From Deltaproteobacteria bacterium (lineage in GTDB: Bacteria > Desulfobacterota > Desulfomonilia > UBA1062), in the NCBI GenBank assembly GCA_018433775.1, contig JAHDQN010000057.1, positions 66,121 to 130,120 on the forward strand: a stretch of 64,000 nucleotides of DNA, in the 5' to 3' direction. Made by a program: the position numbers and the translations under genes. Shown in pieces: positions 6,939-30,429 of this stretch (its first letter is position 1; every line of letters begins with the position of its first letter). Under the pieces are notes generated by a model. It was not told the origin of the DNA. It made no database searches and saw nothing but the letters and a program-made list of their open reading frames with translations.

Positions 6939-8663
6939 TTATGACGGGCTGCCCGGGTCGAGCAGCGCCATTCTTGTTTCTATCTCGTGGGGCGGGGCTC
7001 CGCTCAAAAGGGCGTCCTGAAGGAGACTGAGCGCAGGTGCCATTTTCCCTTCAGCCCGGGAGATATCAGATGCCAGGAGCCGGGCACTCCAGCACCGGGG
7101 ATCGAGCGTGGTCGACGCCTCTGCCATTGCAGAAGCGGCAGCGGACTGGTCCTGCTCGAAGAGCCGCTGTCCGATCAGCACACAGAGTCCGGCCAGCTCT
7201 TCGGCGCTCCCGATCTCGAGGTCCGTGCTCATACTGAAGATTTCCATGAGCCGTTCGATCGCGCTTTCGACGTGCTGCATCTCGCCGCAGGCAATACCCG
7301 TGGATGCCGTGGCGGCAAGGATCCGGAGATCGTCCGGAAACGACCCCAGCGCCTTGAGGTAGACCGCATGGGCATCGGTCGTCCTGCCTGCGTGCCGGTA
7401 CAGCCGTGCCAGAGCCAGAATCACCTGGACATCCTCGTTTGCACCGTGGCCATAGGCGTGCTCCAGGTGGGTGAGGGCTTCATCGACCTTTCCTCCGGAT
7501 ATCAGGGCAAAGCCGAGGGCCTTCCTGGGAAGGGGCCATTCCGGGTTCATCCCGATGGAATCCCGGTAAGCGATGGCGGCCTGGCTGGATCTGCCGGTTT
7601 TTTCAAGGGCGCGGCCCAGCGAGTAGGACATGGCAGCCCTTATGTCCGAGGGCTTGGCATATCCATCCACCTCGAACCCGTGCCTTTGCGCGGCCAGAAA
7701 GGATTGTACAGCCTCGCCGTAGCGCTCGAGCCCGAAGAGAACCATACCCAGGCCGTAGTGCATGTATCCGCTCCGGGGAGACCGTGCCACACCGTCCAGG
7801 GCCTCTTCGAGGGCCTCGTTCATTCTGCCCTGTTTCAGGTGAATGTCGGTCGCCAGGAAGGAGCTCGTGAGATACCAGCCTTCGCTCTCTGAGCATTTCC
7901 TCGCCTCCTTGATGTGTTCCATGCATTTGTCGTAGTCTCTGAGGCCGTAATAGGTCATGGCGATCATGAAGTGCCGGTGTCCTGAATCCGTGCCCTCAGC
8001 GAGTTCGTCGAGCTGGATTGCAAGGTTTCTCCTACGCTTGGCCTCCAGGGACGACTGGTCTGCATACCCGGTGTGGTGGATGGCGATGCCCGTGTTCACA
8101 AATCTTATCCCCGAGGTCTTCTTGAGCGAGGGCAGGAGCTGCTCGTGGATGCGTCCCTCGAACCTCACGCCCTCCATATGGGGGAAGATGCGCAGCTGGA
8201 TGGAACCCAGGGAGCCCCAGGTGACAGGGGTGTTCAGGAGTGTGAGGAAATACGCGGTGTGTTTCCCCGGATCGAGCGATCTTTTCAAACCTCGCAGGGC
8301 TGCCGCCGCCTCTTGTGTCACGTGGTCGTCCGCGTCGAGCCACAGGAGGTAGTCGGACTCAGCCAGCGCGATAGAGGCGTTGCGCGCCGCCGAGAAATCG
8401 TCGCACCAGGAGAAATGCCCGATCTTCGCCCCAAAGGACTTTGCCAGAGAGACGGTTGAGTCGATCGACCCGGTGTCCACGACGCAGATCTCGTCGACTA
8501 CGTCCCTGATGTCGGAGAGGATGCGTCCGAGGTTTTGCTCCTCGTTCTTCACGATCATGACAGCCCCCAGGGTCGGCTTTTCGTGGGGTTTTGTCACGGC
8601 CGCTCCCGATGATGCCGGGGGATCGATGACTGCACGGCGCGCCCCGCCTTCATGAAGCTTCAC
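6939..8663 (-). CDS. Glycosyltransferase family 2 (GT-A) catalytic domain fused to C-terminal TPR repeats; candidate flagellin glycosyltransferase (same composition as Listeria GmaR, from memory).
   Basis: 574 aa. GT2 core PTLGAVMIVKNEEQNLGRIL...VVDTGSIDSTV...DYLLWLDADD (DxD), then TPR-like repeats. Paralog of 21222..22892. Last gene of the nine-gene operon; overlaps the upstream 1598-aa gene by 14 nt. Confidence 0.8.
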   Translation of the reverse strand: MKLHEGGARRAVIDPPASSGAAVTKPHEKPTLGAVMIVKNEEQNLGRILSDIRDVVDEICVVDTGSIDSTVSLAKSFGAKIGHFSWCDDFSAARNASIALAESDYLLWLDADDHVTQEAAAALRGLKRSLDPGKHTAYFLTLLNTPVTWGSLGSIQLRIFPHMEGVRFEGRIHEQLLPSLKKTSGIRFVNTGIAIHHTGYADQSSLEAKRRRNLAIQLDELAEGTDSGHRHFMIAMTYYGLRDYDKCMEHIKEARKCSESEGWYLTSSFLATDIHLKQGRMNEALEEALDGVARSPRSGYMHYGLGMVLFGLERYGEAVQSFLAAQRHGFEVDGYAKPSDIRAAMSYSLGRALEKTGRSSQAAIAYRDSIGMNPEWPLPRKALGFALISGGKVDEALTHLEHAYGHGANEDVQVILALARLYRHAGRTTDAHAVYLKALGSFPDDLRILAATASTGIACGEMQHVESAIERLMEIFSMSTDLEIGSAEELAGLCVLIGQRLFEQDQSAAASAMAEASTTLDPRCWSARLLASDISRAEGKMAPALSLLQDALLSGAPPHEIETRMALLDPGSPS

Positions 8664-11600
8664 CCGTGAAAGCCCGTGTGGCCGATCCGGCCTGTTCCTG
8701 GAGGGCGCACAGCCTGCCGATGTCGGGGTTTTCGGGCTGGGCCCTTTTCACCAGCTCGATGAGGTCGGCCTGGACAAGGTCGTGCCTGTTCGTGGCAACG
8801 AGTGCATCCAGCAGGTTGGCCAGTGCGTCCGGGTCCCGCGGATTCAGGCTCAGGGCCTTGTGCATGGTGACGATGGCGTCGTCGATACTCCCGAGCTCCC
8901 ACTGGATCACTCCGAGGTTGTTCAGTGCCTGGGAGTTTGCCGGATCGGTCTCGAGGACTCTCCTGAAGACCCTGATCGCTCCGGCAAGATCGCCTTCTGC
9001 ATACCGCTGCTCGCCCATCTCGATGAGTATCCCGATCCGCTGGTTCATGGTGAGGTGGAGGCGATACCCGTCTTCTGTCATCTCGAGTATGTCTTTCCAC
9101 TTCTCTGCGAAATAGGTGCGGTTTTTTCCCATGACCTGTTCATAGTCGATGGCGTTGCCGGTGAAGGTCATGCTGCCGTAGTGGTGGATGAAGACATCGC
9201 GGGCCATGATGTTGCGGAAGCCTGCAATGCGCGAGCGCAGGCAGAGGTCGTCGTCCTCGAAGTTGCCGCTGCCGTATTTTTCATCAAGGCCGCCGATGAT
9301 CTCGATAAGGGAGCGTTTCATGAGCAGGCAGAAGCCTACGAGACGAAGGGTGTCCTCGAATCTGCCTGCGTTGTCGCGGGCGAGATCCCGGGCAAAGGCA
9401 TGCATCCGCTCAAGACCGCTTCCGTCGGGTGCACCCTCGACGAGCTGGGGGCCGGAGACCGAGTTGCTCATGGGGCCGACCATGCCGATGTCGCCCGAGC
9501 TGTCGAGGTGTCCGAGCATGCCTGAGAGCCACCCCTGGGTGACGATCACGTCGTTGTTCAGGAGCAGGATGTACGCTCCTTCGGCCGCCTGGATGCCCTG
9601 ATTGCAGCCTCTGGCGAATCCGAGATTCTGCTCGTTTTCGATGAGCTTGTAGTTGCTGTTTTTTTCCGCCAGGGTTCGGAGCCACTGAACCGTGCCGTCG
9701 GTCGATCCGTTGTCCACGAAGATGATCTCGTGGGGCTCGGGCGTGTGCTCCTTGATGCTCTGCACGCACTGCTTCGTATATTCAAGTCCGTTGTAACTGA
9801 GGATCACGATGGAGACCGGACCCTGCATTGCCTCGGGCTGCCGCAGCGATTCGTGCTCGCCCTGTCTGCCCGGTGCCTCGTAGAGTCGGATACGCCGGGC
9901 ATCGGTCCAAAGAAGAGTCCCGTCCTCCTCTATGACGGCATCGGGGGTGATCCTGCCGATCCATTTTTCGTGCAGGCGCTGGATATTCTCCTTGATCTTC
10001 GTAAAGCGCTCGGGCCCGCTTTTCGATTCATGGTGGATCAGCACGCTTTCCGGCTGGTAGACGAGAGTCCATCCCTTCTCCTGGAGCCTGAAGCACAGAT
10101 CGAGGTCTTCGTAGCCGTTCCAGTACCCCTCGTCGAACATGCCCACCTCCTCAAAGAGGTTTCTCCGTACCAGAAGACAGCCTGCGGTAAGGGCCTGATA
10201 CGTCCTGGATACGTTGGCATCCCGGTGGTCAGCGGGCAGGCCGTAATAGATATGCCTCCCGACAAGGGGGTCTGGAAGCTTTTTGTCGTCGATTATCAAC
10301 ACTCCGGCATGCTGGATGGTTCCATCGGGGAAAAGCATCCGGCTGCCGGCTGCCGCGGCCGTGGGATCGCTGTCCAGCACAGTAACCAGAGCGGCAAGCC
10401 ATCCCGGCCGGGGCTCGGTGTCGTTATTGAGGAAGAGAACATAGGGCGATGAGGCCGCCTGCGCCCCCTGGTTGCAGGCCCGGGCGAAACCCAGGTTCTC
10501 CGGATTGGCGATGACCCTGACCCTGTTCCCGAGGCCTTCGAGATAATCCCGGGTCCCGTCCGTGGATCCGTTGTTCACGACAATGCACTCGAATGCTCCG
10601 GGGGGCGTGTTGGAAAACAGGGCATCGATGCATTTCCTGGTGAATTCGACCTTGTTGAAGACGGGTATCACGATCGACACACGGCTTGCTGTACTGGTGC
10701 ATTCGCCCGTGACCGGAGACGGCTGCATCTCCCCGGGCATTTCCGATTCCGCCCCGGCACCAGGTGACGAGTGGGCGGGCCGGACCTGTCCACGGTCGTT
10801 TGCGAAAAGCACGGCCCTGCGGGTGGCTTCAAGATATGTCCTCCCGAATCTGTGATCCGGTTCGAGATGACAGCCTTCGCCCCATTCGTTGAAGGCATTG
10901 ATGAAAACCATCCTTTCTTTCGTCTGTGATTGCAACAGCCTGGCGAGGACTTCCTTGAGCCATAATTCATAGAGCTGTGGCGTCGTGTTATGGAAAATTA
11001 CGGCCCCTTTCCGGCGCCTCGGGGAATTGTCCCAGGACGGGCAGACACAGGGGAAGCGGAGATAGTCGGGCTCGCTTTTCGAAAGTGCCGCCCGGATAAG
11101 GGCATGATAATCGTAGACGTGGTGTCCGGTGTGCATCAGGTCTTCACGCGGTTTTCCCAGGTGGATGCCGTCGGGCTGGAATTCTATGGCAGCGTCGAAG
11201 CCCAATGCCCTGGGATCGGTCATGTCCTGGACGAACCGCTCGACGCGGCAGAGAAAGAGATCCCCGATCCCCTGCCTGCGGGCTTCTTCTCGCCAGAGCG
11301 TGGTAGTGGCGAGCGGATCGGGCAGATTGCTCGCCCGGTACACGATGAACAGAGGTTTGCCGTCTACCTGGATGTATCGAGGGTCCCTGAATATCCCGCA
11401 GAGGTGCCTGATGTGGTCAAGATCGTCCTGAGCGCTGTAGTTCTGCTGTATCAGGACATCGCAATCGCGGCCGTCCCAGGCACGAGTCCAGTTCTCGTTG
11501 GCCCAGCACAGGCAGAAGGGGAAGTCGGGTTCCCCGGATTCCAGCACCTGTCGCAGGGGATAGTCGAGCAGGAGCTTGCCGTTGAACCAGTAATGGTAGT

Positions 11601-13446
11601 AGCAGAATCCATGGATGCCGTGCTCGCGCGCGAGCTCGGCCTGGGCCTTTCTCGTCTCTGCGAGGCGCAGGTCGTAATAACCCAGATCTGACGGCACATG
11701 GGGCTGATAGTGCCCCGGGAAGAGGGGTTTTGCCTTGGAGACATTCGTCCACTCCGTGAACCCCTTTCCCCACCAGATGTCGTTTTCCGGAATGGGGTGG
11801 AACTGAGGGAGGTAGAAAGCGATGGCGCGGACATCCCGTGAGTGTCCGGCGGGCTCACGGTTATCTGAAGTCGGGTTTGGATCCGCACGGGTGCCTTTTC
11901 CCCCAGGATATTTTCGGGAAAGGTTTACTGCGGGACGGCCCGCGGCTGCAGAAGAAGACAAGTCGCTGTCCGTTATCTCGTTCTTCCAGAATTGCTTGAC
12001 CTTATCCAAGCTCTGTAATTCGCTCCTTTCGGCAATCTCCCTGTTCTCCTCATCATCGAAAAAGACCATCTCTCTGAGCTCTTCCGGACGATGATCGCAC
12101 GAATCCAGGATCCGGTACATCTCGACAAGCCCGGCATGAAGGGCATTATCAGCCCTGTGTCTGAGATAGTCGGTGCGGATTTCCCGAGCCACATCCATGC
12201 GCAGCTCAGGGTTTCTGATAAAGCCGTCCAGTTTCTCGAAAAATTCCTCCCTTGTCATGTCCTCGCCGAAATGCCTCCGGTAGGCATCCGACTGCAGCAG
12301 GGTATGGTTTCTGAACACTCGGGATTTGCCGTATTTGGGCACCGGGCAGCTCAATCCTATGACCGGGGCATGTGACTGGACCCCGAGCGATGGTTGGGGC
12401 ATGGCCTCCAGGCAGATATCCGATGCCAGATAGTAGTTGGTGAGGTCCGGTATCTGCGCGTGGAACATCACTCTCTCAGGCAGATCGAATCCCCTGACCA
12501 TCGGATCGTTTTTCGGCAGACCGACCACGATGCACACAACATCCGGATACATATCGAGGATAACCTTCAGGAGATGGAAATAATTGTACTCCTTGTTCGG
12601 GATATATTTTTCCCTCGTTCCCACCGTCAGGATAACGGTTTTCCGGGGGTCGATGTGCAGCAGGGCTTTTGCCTTTGCTTTTTCGTCCGCGTCAACCCGT
12701 CTGTCCATATGATCCGACAAGGTGAACGGGAGAAAAAGACAGTTGTCCGCCGATCGGTATCTCATAGTGAAGTCAGTATGATAGCGCGTGTGGCACACGA
12801 TCAGATCGGCAATGGACCTTCCGTGCCAGAACCAGGAATGGGCATGATTCTCCAGAGCAACCGGAACATCGCCCGGCACCGCAAAGGCGAGCGAGGGGAT
12901 TACATCATGCGGGTGGGCATATGTGATCACCCGCTGGAAACGCTGGGCAAGAAGCCTCAGGGCATAGGCCCGCTCAAAGGGTGTCCGGAAGTTTTTCAGA
13001 GAACACGCTTGGACATATGTCTCCATCCCGGCTCCGAACCATTCCGGGATGACGGACAGACTGGTGTTTGTCAGGACCAGGCACTGATGGCGTTCTCCCG
13101 ATCTTCTCATGATCTGGCGGATCAGCCGGGTGTGGCCGCCGATGCCTGCGACCTCGGTCGCGACGTGAAGGGTGCTGTATTCTGTCGGGAGAGGGAACCA
13201 TGTGCTGATGTCCTGCGGAATGTTTCCGATCTCGACGAGATCTTCCAAGTGGTTGCCATAAAAGGATAACAGGTTTTCGATATCCGAATCGTAGAAGCAA
13301 CCGGGATGGTTCCGCCACGCGAACTCTCCGAGTTTTCTGATCAGCAACAGGTTCTTGTCTATCGATGCGGTCCCTGATGCATGAAAGTCGATTTTAGACT
13401 TCGCCAGCTGGTAGAAATGTTTGTTCCGTTGAAGAAAATCTTCCAT
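8650..13446 (-). CDS. Giant multidomain glycosyltransferase: unknown N-terminal domain (about 480 aa, possibly GT-B-like), WbsX-like domain, two tandem GT2 (GT-A) domains and C-terminal TPR repeats.
   Basis: 1598 aa. WbsX-like block: AIAFYLPQFHPIPENDIWWGKGFTEWTNV...CWANENWTRAWDG. First GT2: VSIVIPVFNKVEFTRKCIDAL...VVNNGSTDGT...FLNNDTEP...GYEDLDLCFRL. Second GT2: VSIVILSYNGLEYTKQCVQSI...FVDNGSTDGT...LLNNDVIV...GNFEDDDLCLR. TPR repeats at the C-terminus (ALNNLGVIQWELGSIDDAI...). The many internal ORFs on both strands are antisense or out-of-frame artefacts. Confidence 0.75.
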   Translation of the reverse strand: MEDFLQRNKHFYQLAKSKIDFHASGTASIDKNLLLIRKLGEFAWRNHPGCFYDSDIENLLSFYGNHLEDLVEIGNIPQDISTWFPLPTEYSTLHVATEVAGIGGHTRLIRQIMRRSGERHQCLVLTNTSLSVIPEWFGAGMETYVQACSLKNFRTPFERAYALRLLAQRFQRVITYAHPHDVIPSLAFAVPGDVPVALENHAHSWFWHGRSIADLIVCHTRYHTDFTMRYRSADNCLFLPFTLSDHMDRRVDADEKAKAKALLHIDPRKTVILTVGTREKYIPNKEYNYFHLLKVILDMYPDVVCIVVGLPKNDPMVRGFDLPERVMFHAQIPDLTNYYLASDICLEAMPQPSLGVQSHAPVIGLSCPVPKYGKSRVFRNHTLLQSDAYRRHFGEDMTREEFFEKLDGFIRNPELRMDVAREIRTDYLRHRADNALHAGLVEMYRILDSCDHRPEELREMVFFDDEENREIAERSELQSLDKVKQFWKNEITDSDLSSSAAAGRPAVNLSRKYPGGKGTRADPNPTSDNREPAGHSRDVRAIAFYLPQFHPIPENDIWWGKGFTEWTNVSKAKPLFPGHYQPHVPSDLGYYDLRLAETRKAQAELAREHGIHGFCYYHYWFNGKLLLDYPLRQVLESGEPDFPFCLCWANENWTRAWDGRDCDVLIQQNYSAQDDLDHIRHLCGIFRDPRYIQVDGKPLFIVYRASNLPDPLATTTLWREEARRQGIGDLFLCRVERFVQDMTDPRALGFDAAIEFQPDGIHLGKPREDLMHTGHHVYDYHALIRAALSKSEPDYLRFPCVCPSWDNSPRRRKGAVIFHNTTPQLYELWLKEVLARLLQSQTKERMVFINAFNEWGEGCHLEPDHRFGRTYLEATRRAVLFANDRGQVRPAHSSPGAGAESEMPGEMQPSPVTGECTSTASRVSIVIPVFNKVEFTRKCIDALFSNTPPGAFECIVVNNGSTDGTRDYLEGLGNRVRVIANPENLGFARACNQGAQAASSPYVLFLNNDTEPRPGWLAALVTVLDSDPTAAAAGSRMLFPDGTIQHAGVLIIDDKKLPDPLVGRHIYYGLPADHRDANVSRTYQALTAGCLLVRRNLFEEVGMFDEGYWNGYEDLDLCFRLQEKGWTLVYQPESVLIHHESKSGPERFTKIKENIQRLHEKWIGRITPDAVIEEDGTLLWTDARRIRLYEAPGRQGEHESLRQPEAMQGPVSIVILSYNGLEYTKQCVQSIKEHTPEPHEIIFVDNGSTDGTVQWLRTLAEKNSNYKLIENEQNLGFARGCNQGIQAAEGAYILLLNNDVIVTQGWLSGMLGHLDSSGDIGMVGPMSNSVSGPQLVEGAPDGSGLERMHAFARDLARDNAGRFEDTLRLVGFCLLMKRSLIEIIGGLDEKYGSGNFEDDDLCLRSRIAGFRNIMARDVFIHHYGSMTFTGNAIDYEQVMGKNRTYFAEKWKDILEMTEDGYRLHLTMNQRIGILIEMGEQRYAEGDLAGAIRVFRRVLETDPANSQALNNLGVIQWELGSIDDAIVTMHKALSLNPRDPDALANLLDALVATNRHDLVQADLIELVKRAQPENPDIGRLCALQEQAGSATRAFTGEAS

Positions 13447-13590: not shown

Positions 13591-14598
13591 TCATGATCTG
13601 CTCACCAGCCTCATATCCTTGAGGCATTGCACCCCGGCCCTTACCCGCAACCAGGCAGGGTCGGGGTCTCTGTCCTGAGCCCACGCAATCAGGGCGGCAG
13701 GTATGTCGGCTCCGGCTTCGTGGGAAAAGGGATAGTGTCCTCCGAAACGCGGGTTGGCTTCCAGCAGGCAGGGGCCGTTCCGGTCGACAATGACATCCAC
13801 GTCGAGCATTCCCGTATGTATCAACCGTTCGCCAATGAAACGGCCGAATGACTCCAGGACCGGGTCAGCCACTGTCTCCGCCGCATCCGTCTCCCCAGAG
13901 CGCATTGCAAGCTTGCGCTTCACGAAGCAGGCCGCAAACTTGCCGTTCAGGTCGTTTACTACATCCAAGCCGTATTCCTGCCCCTGGACATATTCCTGAA
14001 CAATCAGATCTTCCCGGCCGGACCTCAACAGACCGTTCGATTCCATGCGCGATATCTTGCCCTTGGCCAGCAGGAAGGAGCTGTGCAGCTCATCTTCGGT
14101 AAACACGGTCTCTACGGCGATGGATCCCTGGCCATATCGAGGCTTTACCACCAGGGGGAAGTCAAGGGTCCCATCCGCTATATATTGCAAGGCCGAATCC
14201 AGACCGAGGGCGGTCTTGGGGACGCGTATACCTTCACGCATCCCGAATTCCCAGAAGGCATACTTGTCCAGGCAGGTGTCCAGCACGGACGGATCGGACA
14301 CGGCGACTTTCGTCCCCAGTTGCCGGAACCGGTTGCAGGCGCGCGCAATAAAAGGTGACTCCCAGTCATGCAGCGAGCACAGCAGCCGTACCTCGGAGCG
14401 CCGGCAGACGTCCAGCAGCTGCTCGATGAAATCCTCGCTGCCTGCGGGCGGGACGACGACAGCCCTGTCCGCGGCCAGCATACCGGTGGCATGGGCGTGC
14501 GAATTGGTGGCAATGACCAGGCCGCGACCTCCGAGCGCCTGCTGGAAATAGCGCACCAGGTAACTGCGGCGCCCCACGCTGCTCAGGAGTATATTCAT
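13591..14598 (-). CDS. ATP-grasp domain ligase (CPSase-L-chain-like). Probable start at MNILLSSVGRR; the track ORF extends to 14643.
   Basis: N-terminus M.ILLSSVGRR typical of ATP-grasp proteins; central VVKPRYGQGS and C-terminal LLEANPRFGG segments. The upstream 15 codons overlap the GNAT gene. Confidence 0.7.
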   Translation of the reverse strand: MNILLSSVGRRSYLVRYFQQALGGRGLVIATNSHAHATGMLAADRAVVVPPAGSEDFIEQLLDVCRRSEVRLLCSLHDWESPFIARACNRFRQLGTKVAVSDPSVLDTCLDKYAFWEFGMREGIRVPKTALGLDSALQYIADGTLDFPLVVKPRYGQGSIAVETVFTEDELHSSFLLAKGKISRMESNGLLRSGREDLIVQEYVQGQEYGLDVVNDLNGKFAACFVKRKLAMRSGETDAAETVADPVLESFGRFIGERLIHTGMLDVDVIVDRNGPCLLEANPRFGGHYPFSHEAGADIPAALIAWAQDRDPDPAWLRVRAGVQCLKDMRLVSRS

Positions 14599-14605: not shown

Positions 14606-15193
14606 TCAGTCCCCGCCCTCCGATGTCTTCTTCCTGGGCGCATCTTTCAACCATTCTTCCTTCAGAATCCGGTGCTGATAGATATCCTGCAATGCTCCTC
14701 GACAGTAGAAGTGCTGTGCCATGCAGGCTTCCTGCACGAACCCGTTTCTTTCATAAACCCTCCGGGCATGGGTATTTGCAGGGATGGTCCAGAGGTAGAT
14801 CTTGTTGAGATTCAGATTTCCGAAGGCATACCGGAGGACCATCGGGATCACCTCGTCAGGGATGTGACGCCCCCAGTAATCCTTTTCACCGATGGTCATG
14901 TAAAACTGCGCGTGCAGGTGTCGCCGGTCGATCCGGAGCAGTCCGGTCATGCCGATCACCCTGTCTGTTGCCGTATCGCAGATGGAGAGATCGATGCGGC
15001 TGTGATGCTGTTCCTGAGCGGCCCGTCTGAACCAGGCCATGGTCGTTGCCAGTGAGATCGGATAATCCATCAACAAAGTCCTGTTGATTTCCGGGTCGTT
15101 GAACCATTTTGGCCGGAGCGTGAGATCATTCTCCTCCAGACCGCGCAGGTAGACCCTTGTACCCGAAAACACCATTTCTCTATGATCGCTCAT
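14606..15193 (-). CDS. GNAT-family N-acetyltransferase (RimL / PseH-like).
   Basis: 195 aa with a GNAT fold (RVIGMTGLLRIDRRHLHAQFYMTIGEKDYWGRHIPDEVIPMVLRYAFGNLNLNKIYLWTIPANTHARRVYERNGF). Confidence 0.75.
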   Translation of the reverse strand: MSDHREMVFSGTRVYLRGLEENDLTLRPKWFNDPEINRTLLMDYPISLATTMAWFRRAAQEQHHSRIDLSICDTATDRVIGMTGLLRIDRRHLHAQFYMTIGEKDYWGRHIPDEVIPMVLRYAFGNLNLNKIYLWTIPANTHARRVYERNGFVQEACMAQHFYCRGALQDIYQHRILKEEWLKDAPRKKTSEGGD

Positions 15194-15200
15194 GCATACC

Positions 15201-16196
15201 TCAGTATCCTTTTGTGAAATCGACCCTGTTGATCAAAGGACTGCCTGTTGCAAAACGATTCAGATTCTCCACCGCATCAGGCAAATGCGGGAGCTCACCC
15301 CGTATCATCCCGCCGCGGTGCGGAGACATGACCACGTTGTCCAGGGTTTCGAACGGAAAGCGTGAGGGCCTGGATAAAGAGTGTCCCCGTTGCGGGTACT
15401 GGTACCAGACATCTATACCCGCACCGGCAATCCGGTTCTTCTTGAGGACACAGAACAGTGACTCCTCGTCAATGATGTCACCTCTCGAAACATTGATGAG
15501 ATAGGAGGTGCTCTTCATGAGCTCGAGCTGTTCCCGTCCGATCATTCCCCTGGTCGCGGGAGTCAGGGGGGCCGTTACGATCAGCACGTCACAACGCTTG
15601 AACAGGTGATTCAGCCCCTCAGGCCCCAGTATGGCCAGTTCCCCTTCCTTCCTGCCTTCGGAAGCAAGGGCGCGGATGGTTACATCAAATCCCTTGAGCA
15701 TTTTCTCGAGCTTTCGACCTACGGCGCCATACCCTATCAAACCGATATCTTTTCCGTATAATGCATCCGGTGGTGTAAAGTCTTCAGAGCCGGGTCTGCG
15801 CCAGTTACCCTGCTTCAAGGCACAGTGGTGTGACGGTATCTGCTTCATACAGGCAAGGAGCAGGGCCATCGCCAGTTCGGCTACGGATGCGGCATTGCTG
15901 TGAGAGTTGCACACCTGGAAGGAATATTTCTCAAGCAGGCCGAAGTCAATCTTGTCCAGTCCGGTCCATGGGATCTGCAGGAGCTTCACGCCGGTTGCCG
16001 CATCCATAACTTCCGGGGCGGGCACATCGCCCAGCAGTATGTCGATGCCCCTGGATGCTTCTTCCGCCAGGGTGGGAATCGAGTAGTCCTTCGGAATGAC
16101 GAACACCACATCCGGCATGACATGGGTGCGGAGATATTCCAGGTCGAGGTCCCAGAACTTCCGGGTCAGGAGGCACTTAATCTTCTTTTTTTTCAT
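15201..16196 (-). CDS. D-isomer-specific 2-hydroxyacid dehydrogenase family, NAD-binding (SerA/GhrB-like).
   Basis: 331 aa. Rossmann motif GLIGYGAVGRKL and a catalytic region NVSRGDIIDEESL...AGAGIDVW...SPHRGG typical of the D-2-HADH family. Confidence 0.8.
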   Translation of the reverse strand: MKKKKIKCLLTRKFWDLDLEYLRTHVMPDVVFVIPKDYSIPTLAEEASRGIDILLGDVPAPEVMDAATGVKLLQIPWTGLDKIDFGLLEKYSFQVCNSHSNAASVAELAMALLLACMKQIPSHHCALKQGNWRRPGSEDFTPPDALYGKDIGLIGYGAVGRKLEKMLKGFDVTIRALASEGRKEGELAILGPEGLNHLFKRCDVLIVTAPLTPATRGMIGREQLELMKSTSYLINVSRGDIIDEESLFCVLKKNRIAGAGIDVWYQYPQRGHSLSRPSRFPFETLDNVVMSPHRGGMIRGELPHLPDAVENLNRFATGSPLINRVDFTKGY

Positions 16197-17355
16197 GAGC
16201 TGATGACTCCATGAATTCCAGAATTCTCTTCATCCCCTCCTCGAACACATCGGTTTGATTCACGAAGGAGAGGCGGCAATAGTCCGGATAATTATTCCCG
16301 AACGCCAGCCCGGGCACTATCGCAACGTTTTTTTGATCGAGGAGTTCAACGGCGAAAGTGTCACAGTCCATCCGGGAAGCAGATATATTGATGAATGTGA
16401 AGTATCCACCCTCGTACTCCGTACCGCTCAGATAAGGTGAGCGGCTCAGCAGGCGATCGTAGATGATCTTTCGCTCGCGGAGCTTCCGGACATAGTTTCC
16501 GATATGATCCCGGTTTCCGTCGAGAGCGGCAAGGGCTGCCTGCTGGATGAAGGCAGCCGTATTGGTATTGATGTGCTCGTGTATGGTGAGCATGGCGCGT
16601 GTGACCGTGGCAGGGGCGTGGACGTAACCGATGCGCCACCCGGTCATGAAATGGGCCTTGCTGAATCCCCCGACCGTAATGACCCGGTTTTCAATGCCGG
16701 GAATCGACGCCGGGGCACGGTGCTTGGTATCACCTACCACCATTGATTCGTAGATCTCGTCCGATAGCAGGTATAATCGCGGATGTTGTCTCATCTCCTC
16801 GGCAATGAAGAGGATATCGTCGTCGGAAAGCATTCTGCCTGTGGGGTTGTGCGGCGTATTGATGAAAAGCAGCTTTGTCCTGTCCGTAAGGCAGCTCGAG
16901 AGTTTTTCCCGGTCCAGATCGAATACGCCCGGGGTCATGTCCACATCGCACACCTTCACCCCGGAACCGGTGATGTGCACGATCGGGGAATTGCTGACGT
17001 AGCAGGGCCGCAGGAGGGCGACCTCATCTCCTGGTTCGAGCAGGGCTGCGCACGCCAGGAAAAGGGCATTTTTCGCCCCCGGTGTGATGATGATCTGCTC
17101 TGCGCCTGCCTCTATCCCATGCGAAGCCTTCAGGTAGCGGGCAATGCATTCCCTTAAGGGTGGCAGCCCCTGTGGGTTGGAGTATTTCGTCAAGCCATCG
17201 CGCAGGGCTTTTACCCCGGCCTCCACGATGTGAGGGGGTGTCGGCACCTCTGCCTCTCCCAGGCCCAGGGAAATGATCTCTCTGCCCTGTCGTACATGTT
17301 CCCGGACCTTCTGACTGAATTCCAGCGTGACCGATGGTGTTATCTGTTTCATACC
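16177..17355 (-). CDS. Class I/II PLP-dependent aminotransferase (AspC family). Start taken at MKQITP; the track ORF 16177..17499 carries a spurious N-terminal extension.
   Basis: PLP-lysine context GGFSKAHFMTGWRIGY. NPQG, TPGAK and INTPHNPTG motifs. 14-nt gap to the upstream DegT gene stop. Confidence 0.8.
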   Translation of the reverse strand, partial: GMKQITPSVTLEFSQKVREHVRQGREIISLGLGEAEVPTPPHIVEAGVKALRDGLTKYSNPQGLPPLRECIARYLKASHGIEAGAEQIIITPGAKNALFLACAALLEPGDEVALLRPCYVSNSPIVHITGSGVKVCDVDMTPGVFDLDREKLSSCLTDRTKLLFINTPHNPTGRMLSDDDILFIAEEMRQHPRLYLLSDEIYESMVVGDTKHRAPASIPGIENRVITVGGFSKAHFMTGWRIGYVHAPATVTRAMLTIHEHINTNTAAFIQQAALAALDGNRDHIGNYVRKLRERKIIYDRLLSRSPYLSGTEYEGGYFTFINISASRMDCDTFAVELLDQKNVAIVPGLAFGNNYPDYCRLSFVNQTDVFEEGMKRILEFMESSAHEKKED

Positions 17356-17368: not shown

Positions 17369-18475
17369 TTACGAAACGAGAATGTCGATGGTCCGGTACA
17401 GGTCTTTGTCGGTGAGGCCGTAGTACAGAGGCAGGCACAGGATGCGCCTGGTGATGTCCTCGGAAACGGGCGCCGGCTGATACTCCACGATCTTGCCAAA
17501 CGTGTTCACCGATGGATAAAAGTACCTTCTGGGATGGATATCATGCCGCTTCAATTTCTCCTCAGCCTTGGACATCTCCGATTCACTCGTGAAGATGACC
17601 GGGAAATATGAACAGTTCGCCTCACCTGATCTGATACTCTGAAACCGTATCGATGCCACACCACTCAATGCATCGCGGTAGATCGCATACTTCCTCTTTC
17701 TGTCCGCGAGAACGGCATCGTAGTATTTCAGATTTGCGATCCCCAGCGCTGCGTGAACTTCGGTCATTTTTCCGTTAAAGCCATCTTCAACGATGTCCCT
17801 CGCCTCGTCATGGCCGAAGAAACGTATTCTCCTGAGCCGCTCATGCAGTTCGAAATCCCCGGTGATGCATCCCCCGCCTTCAGCCGTGTTCAGCAGCTTG
17901 GTGGCATGCAGACTCGTGGCCGTGATGTCACCGCATTCCAGCAGACTCCTGCCCCGATACATCGAGCCGACCGCATGTGCCCCGTCATAGATCACCTTCA
18001 GCCCGTATCCGGTTGCGATATCCTCTATCGACTGGACATCACAGGGGTTCCCGAACACATGAACCGGCATGATTGCGCAGGTCCTGTCGGTAATGAGCGG
18101 CTCTATATTGCAGGGGTCGAGGTTCAGTGTTTCGGGGTCGATGTCGCAAAAGATCGGTACGCACCCTTCCCATTTGATGGCGCTCACCGTGGCGATCCAG
18201 GTGAACGGGGTGGTGATGATCTCTCCCTTCAGCCCCAGAGCCTTGATCGCCATCTGAAGCGCAATGGTCCCGTTGGATACGGCTACGAAACTGGAAAGCC
18301 CCAGCTTCTTGCAAAGATCCCTCTCCAGCTGCTGAACCAGTGGGCCGTTATGGGTCAGTATGCCCCGTGACCATGCACCCCTGAGCAGTTCGACATACTC
18401 CTCCAGAGGGGCGAGAGAGGGCATGGTAACAGGGATCGAAGGGTGATTATTCATCTGTTCTGATTCTGAATTCAT
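17369..18475 (-). CDS. DegT/DnrJ/EryC1/StrS family sugar aminotransferase (PseC/EvaB-like). Start at MNSESEQ (18475) or MNNHPS (18454); the track ORF extends to 18841 through the upstream gene.
   Basis: Conserved core ...VAVSNGTIALQMAIKALGL...PFTWIATVSAI...VHVFGNP...DGAHAVGS...TSLHATKLLNTAEGG (Schiff-base Lys in HATK). Confidence 0.85.
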   Translation of the reverse strand: MNSESEQMNNHPSIPVTMPSLAPLEEYVELLRGAWSRGILTHNGPLVQQLERDLCKKLGLSSFVAVSNGTIALQMAIKALGLKGEIITTPFTWIATVSAIKWEGCVPIFCDIDPETLNLDPCNIEPLITDRTCAIMPVHVFGNPCDVQSIEDIATGYGLKVIYDGAHAVGSMYRGRSLLECGDITATSLHATKLLNTAEGGGCITGDFELHERLRRIRFFGHDEARDIVEDGFNGKMTEVHAALGIANLKYYDAVLADRKRKYAIYRDALSGVASIRFQSIRSGEANCSYFPVIFTSESEMSKAEEKLKRHDIHPRRYFYPSVNTFGKIVEYQPAPVSEDITRRILCLPLYYGLTDKDLYRTIDILVS

Positions 18476-19439
18476 GGATGAGCCTCGCTTGATTGATGTT
18501 CTGGGCATATTCGTCTCCGGCAATATCCGGATCATGTACTGCACGGGAGAAATACTCCAGTATCCCGGCGAAATGATCGTCAGCCTCGAGGGTGAGAACC
18601 TCTTTTCCTTCGGAGGTCTCAATGACCACCTCGGGTCTGAAACCCGGGGGCGCGGTGAAGATCCGGTTTGCCGAGAGCTTCCCCCTGCTTCCCCATAACT
18701 CGAGGGAGCACTGATAGTGATGGTCAAAGCCGAATGCGATCTCGGAAAAGAGCGGTCCGTTCTTCTGCCGCAGAAAGCCTCCACCCCAGATGTCCACGCG
18801 CCTCTGCTCATCGATGCAGAAGCTTGCGGCTTTGACCTCAAGGTCCGCGCCGAGGAATATCTGGGATATTTTTATGGGATACGCCCCTGCATCCAGCAAG
18901 GCGCCGCCTCCCAGGTCTTTCCGGTACCGGATGTTATCCGGATCGGGAAAGGGGGGGAACCCAAAGGATGAGCGCACACAGCGCAGCTCGCCGATCACCC
19001 CGTTATCCACCATTCGCTTGATTTCCGCCAGCTGGCTATGGAAACGGAACTGAAAGTTCTCGACCAGCGCAAGTCCCTTGTCCCTGGCTGCACGATTGAG
19101 CGATGTAACCTCGCCCACGCTGCAGGCAAGAGACTTTTCCACCAGTACGTGGAGCCCCTTGTTCAGTGCATGTTCGATCCACGGCGCGTGCAGGGCATTG
19201 GGCAGCGGGATGTACACCGCTTCCAGGCCTCCGGCATCCACCAGCGACTCGTAACTCCTGAAGGCCTGAGTGTCGAATTCCCTTGCCCACGCATCGGCCT
19301 TGTCTCCATCACGGCTGGCGATTCCGGCCAGCCGGTACAGGCGGCCCTGTTCGAGGATCGCAGGGATCATCAGTCTTCCGGCGACGCTTGCACAACCCAG
19401 CACACCTATATTTATTCTTTTTCCGGTCATTTCTCTCAA
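18447..19439 (-). CDS. Gfo/Idh/MocA family NAD(P)-dependent oxidoreductase (candidate sugar C-3 dehydrogenase/ketoreductase, WbpB/KijD10-like).
   Basis: 330 aa. N-terminal Rossmann RINIGVLGCASVAGR and EKSLA (the EKP-like motif) with a C-terminal alpha/beta domain. ATGA overlap with the upstream dehydratase stop. Confidence 0.8.
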   Translation of the reverse strand: MREMTGKRINIGVLGCASVAGRLMIPAILEQGRLYRLAGIASRDGDKADAWAREFDTQAFRSYESLVDAGGLEAVYIPLPNALHAPWIEHALNKGLHVLVEKSLACSVGEVTSLNRAARDKGLALVENFQFRFHSQLAEIKRMVDNGVIGELRCVRSSFGFPPFPDPDNIRYRKDLGGGALLDAGAYPIKISQIFLGADLEVKAASFCIDEQRRVDIWGGGFLRQKNGPLFSEIAFGFDHHYQCSLELWGSRGKLSANRIFTAPPGFRPEVVIETSEGKEVLTLEADDHFAGILEYFSRAVHDPDIAGDEYAQNINQARLIHEFRIRTDE

Positions 19440-20851: not shown

Positions 20852-21221
20852 GTGAATACACCGTTTCCCGGTCCCAGTGGCAAAAAGCCGTCTCCCGTTC
20901 TCAAACAGTATCTTCCCGGACCGTTGTTTCCTTGCATGAGGCTCCGCCCGTTATGGGTGAAAAGCCGCCCACTTTGAGAAAGCATCATAACCATGTTCTG
21001 CTGACCCAACATAAACCGGGATGAATTCAGCAATATATATGCCATGCACATACCGGTGGTTATGTTTATGATTTAATAGGGATAATCCCCGCTTGTTGCG
21101 AGAGAGAGTCAATATATTGACTTTTTGCATGGCCGAATTTGGCAACCGCCGGAGATTCACTGTCCAGGGAAAAATATCACCGGCTGCGCTGCTCATGATT
21201 GCGCAGGGAAAAGACGATAGG

Positions 21222-22892
21222 ATGCCTATGGTCAAGTTGCAGGAACAGGGAAGAGATGACAAGCGGCCCACGCTGGGGGTCGTGATGATCGTGAAGAACG
21301 AGGAAGAGAGGCTCCCACTGATTTTGTCCGACATCCAGGGGGCTGTCGACGAGATCGTGGTGGTGGACACGGGCTCACGAGACCGATCGGTCGAAATAGC
21401 CCGATCTTACGGCGCCAAGACCGGGTTTTCTGCCTGGTGCAACGACTTCTCAGCTGCAAGGAACGAATCAATACGCCTTGCCGGGTCAGACTACCTGCTC
21501 TGGCTGGATGCCGATGACCGAATCCGTGCGGAAGACCGGGAAAAGATCCGAGAGCTCAAAAAGAGCCTCAGACCGGCAAGAGACAGAGGATATCTGCTCA
21601 GGATCATGGTCCAGGGCAATGACGATTCAGACACTGTCGCCCTGCAGCCGAGGATCTTCCCGAACAGGGAAGGGATCGTGTTCGAGGGGAGGATACACGA
21701 GCAGATACTCCCCTCAATGGAGCGAAGCGGTGTTGCACTTGAAAAGGTGGACATCACGATAGAACATTCCGGCTATCACAGCCCCGAGGTCATCCGGGAA
21801 AAGGCGGAGAGGAATCTCAAGATCCTCATGGATGGGTCGGGTCGGAAAGAAGGCGATGTCATGCATCTTTTCCGCATTGCCATGAGCTATTATGCGCTTC
21901 GCGATTATGAGAAGTGTCTCGAATATCTCGCCCTGATAAGGAGACAGACCGGAACGGAAACCCGGGAGAAATATCATTACCTCGTGGCGGCAGAGTGCTA
22001 TGCCCGGATGAATGAACCCGGGAGTGCTCTGCGGGAACTGAGGAATGCGGTCCGGATCTTTCCGCGGAGCGGGGCCGTGCAGTATTTTCTGGGCTATCTG
22101 TGTCTCAGGATAAATTTACTCGATGAAGCGATCACCGCACTGGGGAATTCTGTCGGCCTGGGTATAGAGATCGAGAATTTTCCTCTTCCCACGGATATCC
22201 GGGAAGGTCTGCACTACCAATACGGTTGCGCCCTGGAAAAGGTGGGACGGGTCCGGGAAGCCGTATCTGCCTATCAGGAATCTCTGCATGCGAATCCGGG
22301 CTACACTCCTGCACTCAGGGCCCTGGGAATGGTCCTGTTGAACTCCGGTGAAGTGCAGAAGGCCATATCCTGTCTGGAGCGTGCGCAGCAGAGCGCGGGG
22401 AAATACGATCGACAGCTATGCCTTTCCCTGGCAAGGGCTTATATTTTCGTGGGCAAATTCTCCGACGCCCATGCCGTCTACCTCGGGTCGCTCCAGCACG
22501 ATCTCTGCGATATGGAAGTTCTCTCGGGAGCCGTTCAGACAAGCATAGAGACGAATGATATTCAGACGCTCCGGTCATCGATCAGAACATTGGCGTCCTT
22601 TTTCGGAAGAGAAGGGGGGGATTTTCCGGATGCGGCCGGTGACTATGCCGGCGCATGTGCGGAAATCGCGCGGGTGCTGCTTGACCGTGATGATCCGCTT
22701 ATTGCGAAAAGGCTTGCCGATGCCGCATTGAGGATGGATGAAACCTGTGCCCATGCGCACCTGGTCTGTGCGGATATCGCTCTTGTATCCGGCGATGTCG
22801 TAAAGGGCATCTCATGCATGGAGAAAGCTTTGTCTCATGGGGTCTCGCTTGATCAGATCACGGAAAGGATGGAGAGAATCGGCACGCCATGA
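21222..22892 (+). CDS. GT2 (GT-A) + TPR glycosyltransferase, paralog of 6939..8663; candidate flagellin glycosyltransferase. Start taken at MPMVKL; the track ORF starts at TTG 21093.
   Basis: PTLGVVMIVKNEEERLPLILSDIQGAVDEIVVVDTGSRDRSVEIARSYGAKTGFSAWCNDFSAARNESIRLAGSDYLLWLDADD is nearly colinear with the 6939..8663 product. C-terminal TPR repeats. The 21093-21221 extension contains a promoter-like palindrome. Confidence 0.8.
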   Translation: MPMVKLQEQGRDDKRPTLGVVMIVKNEEERLPLILSDIQGAVDEIVVVDTGSRDRSVEIARSYGAKTGFSAWCNDFSAARNESIRLAGSDYLLWLDADDRIRAEDREKIRELKKSLRPARDRGYLLRIMVQGNDDSDTVALQPRIFPNREGIVFEGRIHEQILPSMERSGVALEKVDITIEHSGYHSPEVIREKAERNLKILMDGSGRKEGDVMHLFRIAMSYYALRDYEKCLEYLALIRRQTGTETREKYHYLVAAECYARMNEPGSALRELRNAVRIFPRSGAVQYFLGYLCLRINLLDEAITALGNSVGLGIEIENFPLPTDIREGLHYQYGCALEKVGRVREAVSAYQESLHANPGYTPALRALGMVLLNSGEVQKAISCLERAQQSAGKYDRQLCLSLARAYIFVGKFSDAHAVYLGSLQHDLCDMEVLSGAVQTSIETNDIQTLRSSIRTLASFFGREGGDFPDAAGDYAGACAEIARVLLDRDDPLIAKRLADAALRMDETCAHAHLVCADIALVSGDVVKGISCMEKALSHGVSLDQITERMERIGTP

Positions 22893-23270: not shown

Positions 23271-24404
23271 ATGGCACTTCGTATCAACACCAACGTAGCA
23301 GCACTCAACGCACACCGGCAGTTACTCGGAACAGAGCAGAGACTTGGTCAGAACATGGAGAAGCTCTCCAGCGGTTACCGCATCAATAAGGCTTCTGATG
23401 ATGCGGCCGGCCTGTCGGTTGCCAACCGGCTCCGCACCAACATCAGGTCATTGACCGTTGCATCGAGAAACGTCACCGAGGCGAAGGCCATGGTGGCCAT
23501 CGCAGAAGGCGCGGCCAACCAGGTGGAAGGTATTCTCGAGCGGATGAAAGAGCTCGCAACCCAGGCCGCATCGGACAACGCAGCCCAGGACCGCGACAAA
23601 ATCGACAGCGAGTTCCAGTCCCTCAGAGACGAGATCACCAGGATTGTGGGCGACACCGAGTACCAGGGCACCAAGCTCATCGACGGCACCTTCGGTAACG
23701 CCCTTGACGCAGACACCTCCACCGCTGACGGCGTGACCGGTCTCGATGCCAGCGGCATCAGGCTCGGCGGAGTGGAGGCAGGCATTTATACCATTGGCGC
23801 GACCGCGGGCGGGGCAATCACCATCACGGGTCCGGCTGATGTCGGAATCGAGCAGACCGTTAACACCACTTCAGACGGTGCACAGAGCCTCAGCTTCGAT
23901 GCACTCGGCATCACCCTCAACCTGGGCGAGGACTTTGATTACAGCGAAGCTGATCTGGACGGAACAGCCATTGTCGTCACCAGCGGGACCGGGACCTATC
24001 AGGTCGGCTCCAGCAACACGGCGGCAGAGGACGAGATCTCCGTATCTCTGGGCAACCTGCAGGTGAGCGAACTCGGTTCGGGTACGGGCAGCATGATATC
24101 CGACGTGTCTCTGGCCACGCGAGCCGATGCGAGCGAGGCCCTGTCGATTGTCGATGACGCCATCGATGCAGTCGGCACAGTGCTCGGCGACATCGGTGCA
24201 GTGGTGAACAGGTTCGACTACACTTATTCCAACCTGCAGATCACCATCGAGAATTTCTCGTCTTCCGAGTCGGTCATCCGGGATGTGGATATGGCGGCTG
24301 AGATGGTCAGCTTCACGAAGAACCAGATCCTGCTCCAGGCCGGTACTGCCATGCTGGCACAGGCCAACATGTCGTCCCAGGGCGTCCTGAGCCTGATGGG
24401 TTAG
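23271..24404 (+). CDS. fliC: Flagellin.
   Basis: 377 aa. Conserved N-terminus (MALRINTNVAALNAHRQL...LSSGYRINKASDDAAGLSVANRL) and C-terminus (...AMLAQANMSSQGVLSLMG). Ser/Thr/Gly-rich central variable region. AAGGAGG Shine-Dalgarno 8 nt upstream. Confidence 0.95.
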   Translation: MALRINTNVAALNAHRQLLGTEQRLGQNMEKLSSGYRINKASDDAAGLSVANRLRTNIRSLTVASRNVTEAKAMVAIAEGAANQVEGILERMKELATQAASDNAAQDRDKIDSEFQSLRDEITRIVGDTEYQGTKLIDGTFGNALDADTSTADGVTGLDASGIRLGGVEAGIYTIGATAGGAITITGPADVGIEQTVNTTSDGAQSLSFDALGITLNLGEDFDYSEADLDGTAIVVTSGTGTYQVGSSNTAAEDEISVSLGNLQVSELGSGTGSMISDVSLATRADASEALSIVDDAIDAVGTVLGDIGAVVNRFDYTYSNLQITIENFSSSESVIRDVDMAAEMVSFTKNQILLQAGTAMLAQANMSSQGVLSLMG

Positions 24405-28136: not shown

Positions 28137-28601
28137 TCAGTGTGCGGCCGGGACGGGATAGGACCTGTCACCCATCTTGAGAATGATCCTTCCTTCTTCA
28201 TCCTCTTCCATCATCAGGGCCAGCAGATAATACGCGGCGCGGGAGAATCGCACCTTCATGCCGTCTGGCAGCAGGCAGTACATGACGTTCTGCTCTCCGA
28301 TGGACAGGGTCCCGGGGTCGAGCTTGTGAACCTCGCCCGTGTTCAGAAGCACCAGGAGTCCGGTCTCCTGGTCCCCCCGGATGGACGCCACCACGAAGGG
28401 GGTGTCTTCCACATCCACATAGCAGACCTCGGACTGAAAGACGATCCGGTACCTGCCATCTTCGTCCTTCTGGAGCGCATTGCAGAATGTCAGGAGAACC
28501 AAGGGGTTCACGATCTCCTGGTTCTCGTAGTACCATTTCCCTTCCTTGTCGATCCGGATTTTGCAGGAGTCGGTGACATCCCGGAGTTCGCTCGGCTTCA
28601 T
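28137..28601 (-). CDS. Conserved hypothetical protein (DUF1285-like?).
   Basis: 154 aa. IRIDKEGKWYYENQEI...LLTFCNALQKDEDGRYRIV resembles the DUF1285 family as I recall it. Weak call. Confidence 0.35.
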   Translation of the reverse strand: MKPSELRDVTDSCKIRIDKEGKWYYENQEIVNPLVLLTFCNALQKDEDGRYRIVFQSEVCYVDVEDTPFVVASIRGDQETGLLVLLNTGEVHKLDPGTLSIGEQNVMYCLLPDGMKVRFSRAAYYLLALMMEEDEEGRIILKMGDRSYPVPAAH

Positions 28602-28746
28602 GGACCTGTCTCCCCGTTTTTTTCTTTTCTATTTTAGCATAACCCGACCCCATGACCATCTCAAGGATAAAGTATTCTCAAGTAATATTGATTCCTTGAT
28701 CTTACTGTGGTAATCAGACTCGATATGTGTTCTCCAAACTCTTTGG

Positions 28747-29355: not shown

Positions 29356-29446
29356 AGCACGGCGAAAGGGCCCTCCCCGGGAAAACGAGAAAGCGCTCAA
29401 CTGTTCCGAGGAAATATCCGAACTAAAAAAATGAGGGAGTACGCCC

Positions 29447-30316: not shown

Positions 30317-30429
30317 GGGATTGAGCGGTATGAGGAGGGACCAGGCGGTATGTTTCCTTGAGACCCTCATTCGTCTCTTTACTCTTTCTGATCAGGAGGC
30401 GTGCTGTTCTCAAGGGCAGGAGGAAATGC

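Follow-up and report, generated by a model that had tools for sequence, protein, structure and literature searches.

A five-module protein proposed to elongate flagellin glycans in an environmental Desulfobacterota bacterium

What could a bacterium do with one polypeptide that joins four putative catalytic modules for glycan building to a tetratricopeptide repeat (TPR) domain, and that is encoded within 10 kb of its flagellin gene? The question is raised by a stretch of 64,000 nucleotides from a Deltaproteobacteria bacterium (contig JAHDQN010000057.1 of assembly GCA_018433775.1, positions 66,121 to 130,120), here called the window, which holds the gene for a protein of 1598 residues, the giant. 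An earlier note, written from the letters of this DNA, had described it as a multi-module glycosyltransferase (GT) linked to flagellin. Following up that description, we lean slightly towards a reading in which the giant is a soluble cytoplasmic multi-enzyme that elongates O-linked flagellin glycans before export.

The giant is a single open reading frame (ORF) of 1598 codons without internal stop (window 8650-13446, minus strand). A purine-rich, ribosome-binding-like stretch (GAGGGAG/AGGAA) stands directly upstream of its ATG, and the start codon is confirmed by the alignments of its homologues, which begin at residues 2-5. An identical 1598-residue protein is found, in the same gene order, in the independent Logan assembly SRR13787005, and a 98% identical one of equal length, again in the same gene order, in the GenBank metagenome contig GCA_025563055.1. 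The latter copy differs from that of the window by 83 substitutions in 4797 nucleotides, with no indel; the codon changes comprise 43 synonymous and 37 non-synonymous ones, and the resulting ratio of non-synonymous to synonymous proportions (pN/pS ~0.26) indicates that the gene is under purifying selection. That the long frame is an artefact, either a mis-assembly or a recent stop-loss fusion on its way to becoming a pseudogene, is in our judgement extremely improbable: its unusual length alone speaks for such an origin, while the same frame in two independent assemblies, free of indels and with this pN/pS value, rules out a frameshift or pseudogene, and colinear segments are common to the homologues as far as residue 1139. 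The check for separate genes was likewise negative, and the single polypeptide claimed at the outset stands.

The protein has no transmembrane-like segment (highest 19-residue Kyte-Doolittle mean, 1.86) and is taken to be soluble because it lacks any hydrophobic segment. A promoter scan returned nothing above shuffled expectation. Between the window and the copy at L001 (10001-14797), 22 of the 37 amino-acid differences lie beyond residue 1200, in the second GT2 module and the TPR, and only three within the 500-residue N-terminal domain; on these small numbers, the C-terminal part of the giant evolves faster.

Taken globally, the Pfam domain search and the predicted folds bear out the five-part architecture that the earlier note had proposed: an N-terminal domain, a WbsX module, two GT2 modules and a C-terminal TPR (Table 1). 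Annotation with hidden Markov models from Pfam agrees with the WbsX assignment (E 7e-140) and with that of the GT2 modules (213.7 bits for Glycos_transf_2). The idea of three or four transferase modules holds in part, since three GT folds are recognisable, but the WbsX module is modelled as a barrel like that of glycoside hydrolase families 99 and 71 (GH99, GH71) and its role as a transferase is not demonstrated. The first of the two linkers has a predicted local distance difference test score (pLDDT) below 50 at residues 501-520 and is weakly conserved among homologues. The architecture is as rare as had been supposed: in a search space of 5.8 billion clustered proteins, 13 match the giant at E <= 1e-10, and one of them, the near-identical orthologue (98% identical), has the same layout. 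A literature search on multidomain flagellin glycosyltransferases returned no matching architecture.

The N-terminal domain, of about 500 residues, had been guessed to be GT-B-like. Neither as a single sequence nor as a seven-sequence profile does it match any Pfam, NCBIfam or PDB sequence; its sole Pfam match, LpxB at E 0.11, is not significant, and NCBIfam gave none. The structural models of this domain and of the WbsX module, built from seven-sequence alignments, are of moderate confidence, and for the N-terminal domain the predicted structure is a GT-B fold of two Rossmann domains. Furthermore, in several relatives of the domain (E 1e-121 to 1e-40), the corresponding C-terminal half matches Glyco_trans_1_4 or Glycos_transf_1, and some of them exceed the Pfam cutoff for GT-B families (P0028 at 31.6 bits, P0015 at 28.1 and the L010 protein at 27.6). 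This moderately confident model and the transitive matches support the assignment of the domain to the GT-B glycosyltransferases, as a predicted member of an uncurated family, and the original guess survives.

The alignment of seven homologues of the domain (A1; 46-54% identity) contains many invariant motifs, among them GGHTR (residues 103-107), NHAHSWFW (200-207), TREK..PN (277-284) and CLE.MPQPSLGVQ (345-357). The last of these, CLEAMPQPSLGVQ, is where the EX7E motif of retaining GT4 enzymes would fall; it contains a single Glu (E347), followed by Gln357, and is modelled at a pLDDT below 50. A search of 1.84 billion representatives with the A1 profile gives at least 1910 clusters with E <= 1e-3, of which 383 have E <= 1e-30. 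These clusters, at 50% identity, are mostly standalone proteins of 500-560 residues. Pfam and NCBIfam offer no model for the family (with P0014-P0161 among its members), whose proteins most sources list under 'hypothetical protein'; it is worth considering for curation as a new GT-B family.

The second module matches Glyco_tran_WbsX (PF14307) almost end to end, at residues 542-875 (466.9 bits, the cutoff being 25.1; positions 2-350 of a profile of 350), and a 25-residue motif quoted in the earlier note as WbsX-like lies within it, at residues 545-569. The family takes its name from O-antigen clusters, where gene counts led to its being called a transferase. Our literature search returned no biochemical study of any WbsX-family (PF14307) protein, mechanism included, and for this reason we treat the word 'glycosyltransferase' in the family name as annotation rather than mechanism. 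For this segment, structure prediction gives a (beta/alpha)8 barrel of GH99/GH71 type that keeps the catalytic Glu-x-x-Glu pair of GH99. In sequence, similarity to GH99 endo-mannosidases is marginal (E 0.02 with phmmer, 0.008-0.05 with profiles), below significant membership, and the Pfam search of the giant reported no GH99 match. Nevertheless, the profile alignment pairs INAFNEWGEGCHLEP of the module, which is the NEWGEG at residues 853-858 (window 10873-10890), with ITSFNEWHEGSQIEP of BxGH99, in which E333 is the general base and E336 the catalytic acid (PMC6055899). The equivalents of both glutamates are invariant in the seven aligned homologues. On the modelled fold, the module may use GH99-like chemistry.

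For the remaining catalytic modules, Glycos_transf_2 covers two stretches of the giant (cutoff 23.3 bits; best at 924-1101), with Glyco_tranf_2_3 at 97.5 bits and Glyco_tranf_2_2 at 63.8 bits, the latter on the second module (1210-1404); NCBIfam returned sub-threshold matches to assorted polysaccharide GT2 families. The first module (GT2a) carries VVNNGSTDGT (956-965), FLNNDTE (1005-1011) and YEDLDLC (1112-1118), and the second (GT2b) FVDNGSTDGT (1243-1252), LLNNDV (1295-1300) and FEDDDLC (1396-1402). Both have the (D/N)NGSTD nucleotide motif, and both have the DxD-type motif ascribed to them before, but as an NND variant, with an acidic ED(L/D)D box further on; the roles of these residues are assigned from general knowledge of GT-A enzymes. 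The best PDB sequence matches of GT2a are 6p61, the chondroitin synthase K4CP (E 9e-13), 8uhv and GalT1; there is weak similarity to polypeptide N-acetylgalactosamine (GalNAc) transferases (E ~1e-8), and GmaR is not matched in the PDB sequence search. GT2b best matches K4CP (E 1.6e-10) and 6p61, and reaches GmaR at E 1.3e-4. Judged by these matches, the two modules resemble GT2 enzymes that elongate glycans and barely resemble GmaR.

The TPR array described earlier is present at the C-terminus but is short, at about 110 residues and roughly three repeats. The unit of GT2b and TPR is kept in two relatives, P0004 (38% identity) and P0009 (47%). That the TPR of the giant docks flagellin, as the earlier note proposed, is a plausible conjecture, to which the correlation of TPR fusion with a flagellin setting lends indirect support.

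The relatives of the giant reveal how these modules travel. Six of them (P0002-P0007, 1352-2574 residues) have a colinear core of GT-B and WbsX, corresponding to residues 1-880 of the giant at 44-55% identity, followed by C-terminal modules that vary: every one has a TPR, in combination with GT2, methyltransferase, B12-radical SAM or another WbsX copy. In all four assessable loci (the window, L007, L005 and L018), the fused giant lies less than 10 kb from flagellin and from a small gene encoding a GT2-TPR protein. Flagellin, FliS and FliD are near P0002 (L007), and flagellin, FliW and CsrA near P0004 (L005); at the locus of P0006 (L018), flagellin and the GT2-TPR gene are both within 10 kb.

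Elsewhere, GT-B and WbsX are split into adjacent genes without TPR, in metagenome-assembled genomes (MAGs) of Geobacteraceae (L010, L011) and in metagenome contigs (L016, L017). The settings of these pairs are Wzy-type, associated with an ATP-binding cassette (ABC) transporter or otherwise non-flagellar. A standalone GT-B relative with no adjacent WbsX sits in a Wzt-type O-antigen-like cluster (L015). At L008, the part of the giant running from GT2 to GT2-TPR is a separate, adjacent protein of 1215 residues, 36-37% identical to residues 921-1185 and 1197-1536 of the giant. The trio of 2,3-dehydratase, GFO-type reductase and DegT genes accompanies the GT-B/WbsX pair at L007 and L016 as well. 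Because of this pattern of fusion and fission, we regard GT-B and WbsX as a functional pair; the giant of the window fuses that pair to modules that are encoded as a neighbouring polypeptide in related islands, and TPR fusion goes with a flagellin context.

Several features of these loci stand apart from that pattern. Among the relatives at L007/L008 (P0002, 2574 residues) and L018 (P0006), a single chain can hold a pair of WbsX copies together with methyltransferase domains and a B12-binding radical SAM domain; at L018, the radical SAM is encoded by the next gene. Such variety hints at flagellin glycans that are methylated or tailored in other ways, and at modules that move freely from one gene to its neighbour. 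Preceding the split pair in two Geobacteraceae loci (L010 7010-9952 and L011 6423-9983, both plus strand) is a protein of 980-1186 residues, in L010 with cadherin-like/Big_9 domains and a Wzt-like ABC ATPase nearby; this protein is a possible alternative glycoprotein substrate. The label 'Bacteroidetes bacterium' on two homologous MAG loci was considered as a sign of a non-flagellated host and discarded as evidence against a flagellar role: P0002 is encoded on one of them, L008, and on another contig, L007 from JGI, it has flagellin, FliS and FliD as neighbours.

In the window itself, nine co-directional genes on the minus strand include the giant in eighth place, with seven sugar genes upstream of it and a GmaR-like GT gene downstream; a divergent plus-strand group holds a second GmaR-like GT gene, flagellin and FliD. 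The association with flagellin put forward in the earlier note is confirmed by this island and by the similar surroundings of the fused relatives. The two small GT2-TPR neighbours are paralogues, 38% identical over their full length (21093-22892 against the 6939-8663 protein). For the downstream one (6939-8597), the best PDB match is the GT domain of GmaR (22ao, E 1.9e-24), then SunS, and the best NCBIfam match is the SunS family; for both, the matches after GmaR are the peptide S-glycosyltransferases SunS and ThuS (~1e-16 for SunS). Both are GmaR-type proteins by these measures, whereas the giant, whose GT2a has no GmaR match, whose GT2b reaches E 1.3e-4 and whose TPR is short, is not. Judged by sequence likeness, the two flanking proteins, which the earlier note had not pointed out, are likely better candidates than the giant for starting O-glycosylation of flagellin, and the giant is more probably an extender than a primer.

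As for the other members of the island, the coordinates of the seven sugar genes come from gene calls on the matching loci of the two independent assemblies. Their combination hints at the synthesis of a 2-deoxy amino sugar that bears an N-acyl group from an amino or hydroxy acid. The flagellin, the presumed acceptor, has 69 Ser and Thr residues, most dense in its central region (160-280). In the ORFs scanned, from window position 1 to ~42 kb, we found no Wzx, Wzy or ABC-exporter family, no polymerase or flippase, no polyprenyl-phosphate or initiating phosphoglycosyltransferase family, and no nonulosonic-acid genes. A Pfam scan of the giant and its neighbours gave no Maf/DUF115 domain.

Some details of the neighbourhood complete this description. 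In its longest ORF, the downstream gene starts with GTG at 8663 and shares 14 nt with the 3' end of the giant; gene callers place the start at 8597 instead, with 52 nt between the two genes. The C-terminus of the giant as a recent copy of a neighbour was a further candidate that we rejected, GT2b-TPR and the GT2-TPR neighbours being only generically similar. The presence of two candidate primers next to a single flagellin gene could reflect two classes of site, two first sugars or a second acceptor such as FliD. FliD itself has 1035 residues in the window and 598 in the related locus L007. Three ORFs without Pfam match lie at 28140-30370, and the tRNA-Sec of the window indicates that the organism uses selenocysteine. 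The nearest homologues of the Era GTPase encoded in the window (92% identity) belong to MAGs labelled Desulfomonilia or 'Deltaproteobacteria', in keeping with an uncultured member of the Desulfobacterota related to sulfate reducers.

Table 1. Modules of the giant and features of its neighbourhood in the window
Feature	Residues of the giant	Window position	Strand	Basis
Multi-module enzyme gene (giant), complete		8650..13446	(-)	Single ORF, 1598 residues, ATG start
Module 1, predicted divergent GT-B (GT4-like) domain, no curated family	1-500	11947..13446	(-)	
Linker 1, Pro/Gly/Ser/Arg-rich	501-541	11824..11946	(-)	Compositional scan
Module 2, WbsX (PF14307), modelled GH99/GH71-like TIM barrel	542-875	10822..11823	(-)	
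Linker 2, Pro/Ser/Gly/Glu-rich	876-921	10684..10821	(-)	Compositional scan
Module 3, GT2 (GT-A) domain a	922-1166	9949..10683	(-)	Pfam Glycos_transf_2, Glyco_tranf_2_3
Module 4, GT2 (GT-A) domain b	1210-1440	9127..9819	(-)	Pfam Glyco_tranf_2_2, Glycos_transf_2
Module 5, short TPR, about three repeats	1474-1584	8695..9027	(-)	Pfam TPR_19, TPR_11, TPR_16, TPR_2
Downstream GmaR-like GT2 + long TPR protein, called 552 residues		6939..8597	(-)	Pfam; GmaR GT domain match
ATP-grasp ligase		13591-14598	(-)	Pfam
GNAT		14606-15193	(-)	Pfam
2-hydroxyacid dehydrogenase		15201-16196	(-)	Pfam
Class I/II aminotransferase		16177-17352	(-)	Pfam
DegT aminotransferase		17369-18475	(-)	Pfam
GFO/IDH/MocA reductase		18447-19439	(-)	Pfam
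Nucleoside diphosphate (NDP)-hexose 2,3-dehydratase		19436-20851	(-)	Pfam
Second GmaR-like GT2 + TPR protein, 599 residues, divergent, directly upstream of flagellin		21093..22892	(+)	Pfam; 22ao E 6.4e-25
Flagellin, 377 residues, presumed acceptor		23271..24404	(+)	Pfam Flagellin_N, Flagellin_C
FliD filament cap, 1035 residues		24946..28053	(+)	Pfam FliD_N, FliD_C, Flagellin_IN
LysM + DUF4015 (putative glycosyl hydrolase) protein, downstream of flagellar genes		30358-31836	(+)	
tRNA-Sec, anticodon TCA		32112-32208	(-)	Rfam 69.8 bits

The previous observations lead to a hypothesis for the order of action. Mechanistically, one or both of the flanking GmaR-like GT2-TPR enzymes would put the first sugar on Ser or Thr of flagellin in the cytoplasm. 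The C-terminal TPR of three repeats would hold the giant on flagellin or on the priming enzyme; in FlmG, a TPR-containing domain confers flagellin binding (PMC7591256). In turn, the giant could extend the glycan in up to four further steps by means of its GT-B, two GT2 and WbsX modules, one of the added residues probably being the 2-deoxy amino sugar made and N-acylated by the products of the seven upstream genes.

Several points weigh against this reading. The organism is uncultured, and the sample of contexts is small, at four fused loci. The GT-B/WbsX cassette is not specific to the flagellum, as it occurs in polysaccharide clusters too. Genes for dTDP-glucose synthase (rmlA) and the 4,6-dehydratase (rmlB) were not seen in the island. 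The GT-B model is moderately confident, with pLDDT below 50 over residues 202-247 and 348-364, which include invariant motifs; the glycoside-hydrolase fold of the WbsX module makes its contribution to elongation uncertain; and the three or so repeats of the TPR show no specific similarity to the TPRs of the neighbours.

The alternatives differ in how much of the reading they would replace. As the earlier note implied, the giant might itself be the O-glycosyltransferase that primes flagellin: with its TPR docked on the acceptor, one module would attach the first sugar and the rest would lengthen the chain. The small GT2-TPR proteins could in that case act on other sites or other flagellar proteins, or in regulation, which is also a role of GmaR. 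The order of GT2b and TPR at its C-terminus mirrors GmaR, GT2a has its weak likeness to polypeptide GalNAc-transferases, and a TPR is present in every fused relative beside flagellin. We nevertheless hold this to be unlikely: GmaR does not match GT2a and is only a distant match of GT2b (E 1.3e-4), against ~1e-24 for the neighbours (SunS ~1e-16), and the separate small GT2-TPR gene, because it is present at every flagellin-linked locus examined, is the constant candidate primer. We would give an equally low rating to a giant that builds a non-flagellar glycan, whether a lipid-linked or free polysaccharide or one on another surface protein, within a general surface-glycan island. Standalone GT-B/WbsX pairs and GT-B relatives do occur in Wzy-, Wzt/ABC- and O-antigen-like clusters (L016, L015, L010), and the origin of the WbsX name points the same way; in Burkholderia gladioli, a wbsX gene coding for more than 1450 residues affects the O-antigen (PMC13391952). 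On the other hand, the scanned ORFs gave no exporter, polymerase, flippase or initiating phosphoglycosyltransferase family, the giant has no membrane segment, and flagellin and a GmaR-like GT gene are within 10 kb in four of four assessable fused loci. The locus of P0007 has no flagellin in the available sequence, but its contig stops ~5 kb downstream, which makes it uninformative.

A different kind of alternative concerns the WbsX module only and is compatible with the elongation reading. Instead of using nucleotide sugars, the module could be a GH99-like retaining transglycosylase, a trimming hydrolase or a phosphorylase-type enzyme, partnered with the GT-B domain, leaving three classical transferases and one glycan-remodelling enzyme. 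On the modelled barrel, we see this as possible, if rather doubtful. In the searchable literature, no mechanism is on record for any WbsX-family member, likeness of fold does not fix chemistry, and the substrate-proximal part of the model (residues 18-60 of the domain, with the PQFHP..ENDxWWGxGFTEW motif) has a pLDDT below 50. Bolder still, and to our minds improbable, is the suggestion that GT-B and WbsX form an undescribed two-part glycan-building machine, in which a cytoplasmic GH99-like barrel performs transfer or en-bloc transglycosylation and fusion to a TPR retargets a polysaccharide system to flagellin. If true, WbsX would be a class of glycosyltransferase with a hydrolase fold.

Flagellin glycans have a bearing on motility and filament stability, as well as on recognition by phages and hosts, and what is known about them derives mostly from a few pathogens with single-sugar or nonulosonic-acid systems. 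Under the elongation reading, a single tethered multi-enzyme encoded at this locus would build a flagellin glycan of the oligosaccharide type in environmental Desulfobacterota. It also offers three handles: a large GT-B family (~1900 clusters at 50% identity) without a Pfam or NCBIfam model; a fusion/fission link that ties this family to WbsX; and, given the GH99-like fold and the retained catalytic pair, a testable question on the chemistry of the widespread WbsX 'glycosyltransferases'. The architecture of the giant is rare and uncharacterised, while every module type and the logic of the island are known, so that existing concepts are extended rather than overturned.

How, then, does the giant compare with known systems? 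GmaR of Listeria monocytogenes is likewise a cytoplasmic combination of GT2 and TPR acting on flagellin, and the last ~390 residues of the giant have the same order of GT2, then TPR. With its one catalytic domain, GmaR attaches a single N-acetylglucosamine. The giant, in contrast, has four putative catalytic modules, and the true GmaR-like proteins of the island are its small neighbours. K4CP of E. coli K4, with its two GT2 domains, also gathers several glycosyltransferase modules in one chain and ranks among the best PDB matches for either GT2 module of the giant; the likeness is limited to the generic GT2 core. WbdA and WbbB are O-antigen enzymes with several GT modules per chain. All three act on lipid-linked or free polysaccharide, and they lack a TPR, WbsX and the GT-B family of the giant. 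The WbsX module is predicted to have a barrel like those of the GH99 endo-alpha-1,2-mannosidases/mannanases (BxGH99, BtGH99, human MANEA), which are secreted or Golgi hydrolases, and of the GH71 family, at a marginal sequence likeness to GH99 (E 0.008-0.05). Unlike GH99, that module would be cytoplasmic, is part of a putative biosynthetic enzyme and has invariant motifs of its own (PQFHP.PEND, WANENWT). The WbsX O-antigen family is matched from end to end, but here in a flagellin island and fused to GT-B, two GT2 modules and a TPR.

FlmG of Caulobacter crescentus is modular in a similar sense, with a separate TPR-containing flagellin-binding domain and a glycosyltransferase domain, and works in the cytoplasm (PMC7591256). 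Its flagellin-binding domain is N-terminal and its one transferase domain transfers pseudaminic acid (PMC7591256), whereas the giant has a C-terminal TPR and four putative catalytic modules; compared by description, the FlmG-type order of N-terminal TPR and C-terminal transferase is the reverse of that of the giant. A large multi-domain protein named after wbsX also exists in Burkholderia gladioli (PMC13391952). By family, the giant is a bona fide GT2 enzyme twice over and a PF14307 member; on the predicted models, it would belong to GT-B/GT4 and to GH99 by structure and not by sequence, and it falls outside the GmaR and Maf families. By analogy, it would work like a hybrid of the TPR-tethered flagellin glycosyltransferases, GmaR and FlmG, and the multi-module glycan synthases K4CP, WbdA and WbbB.

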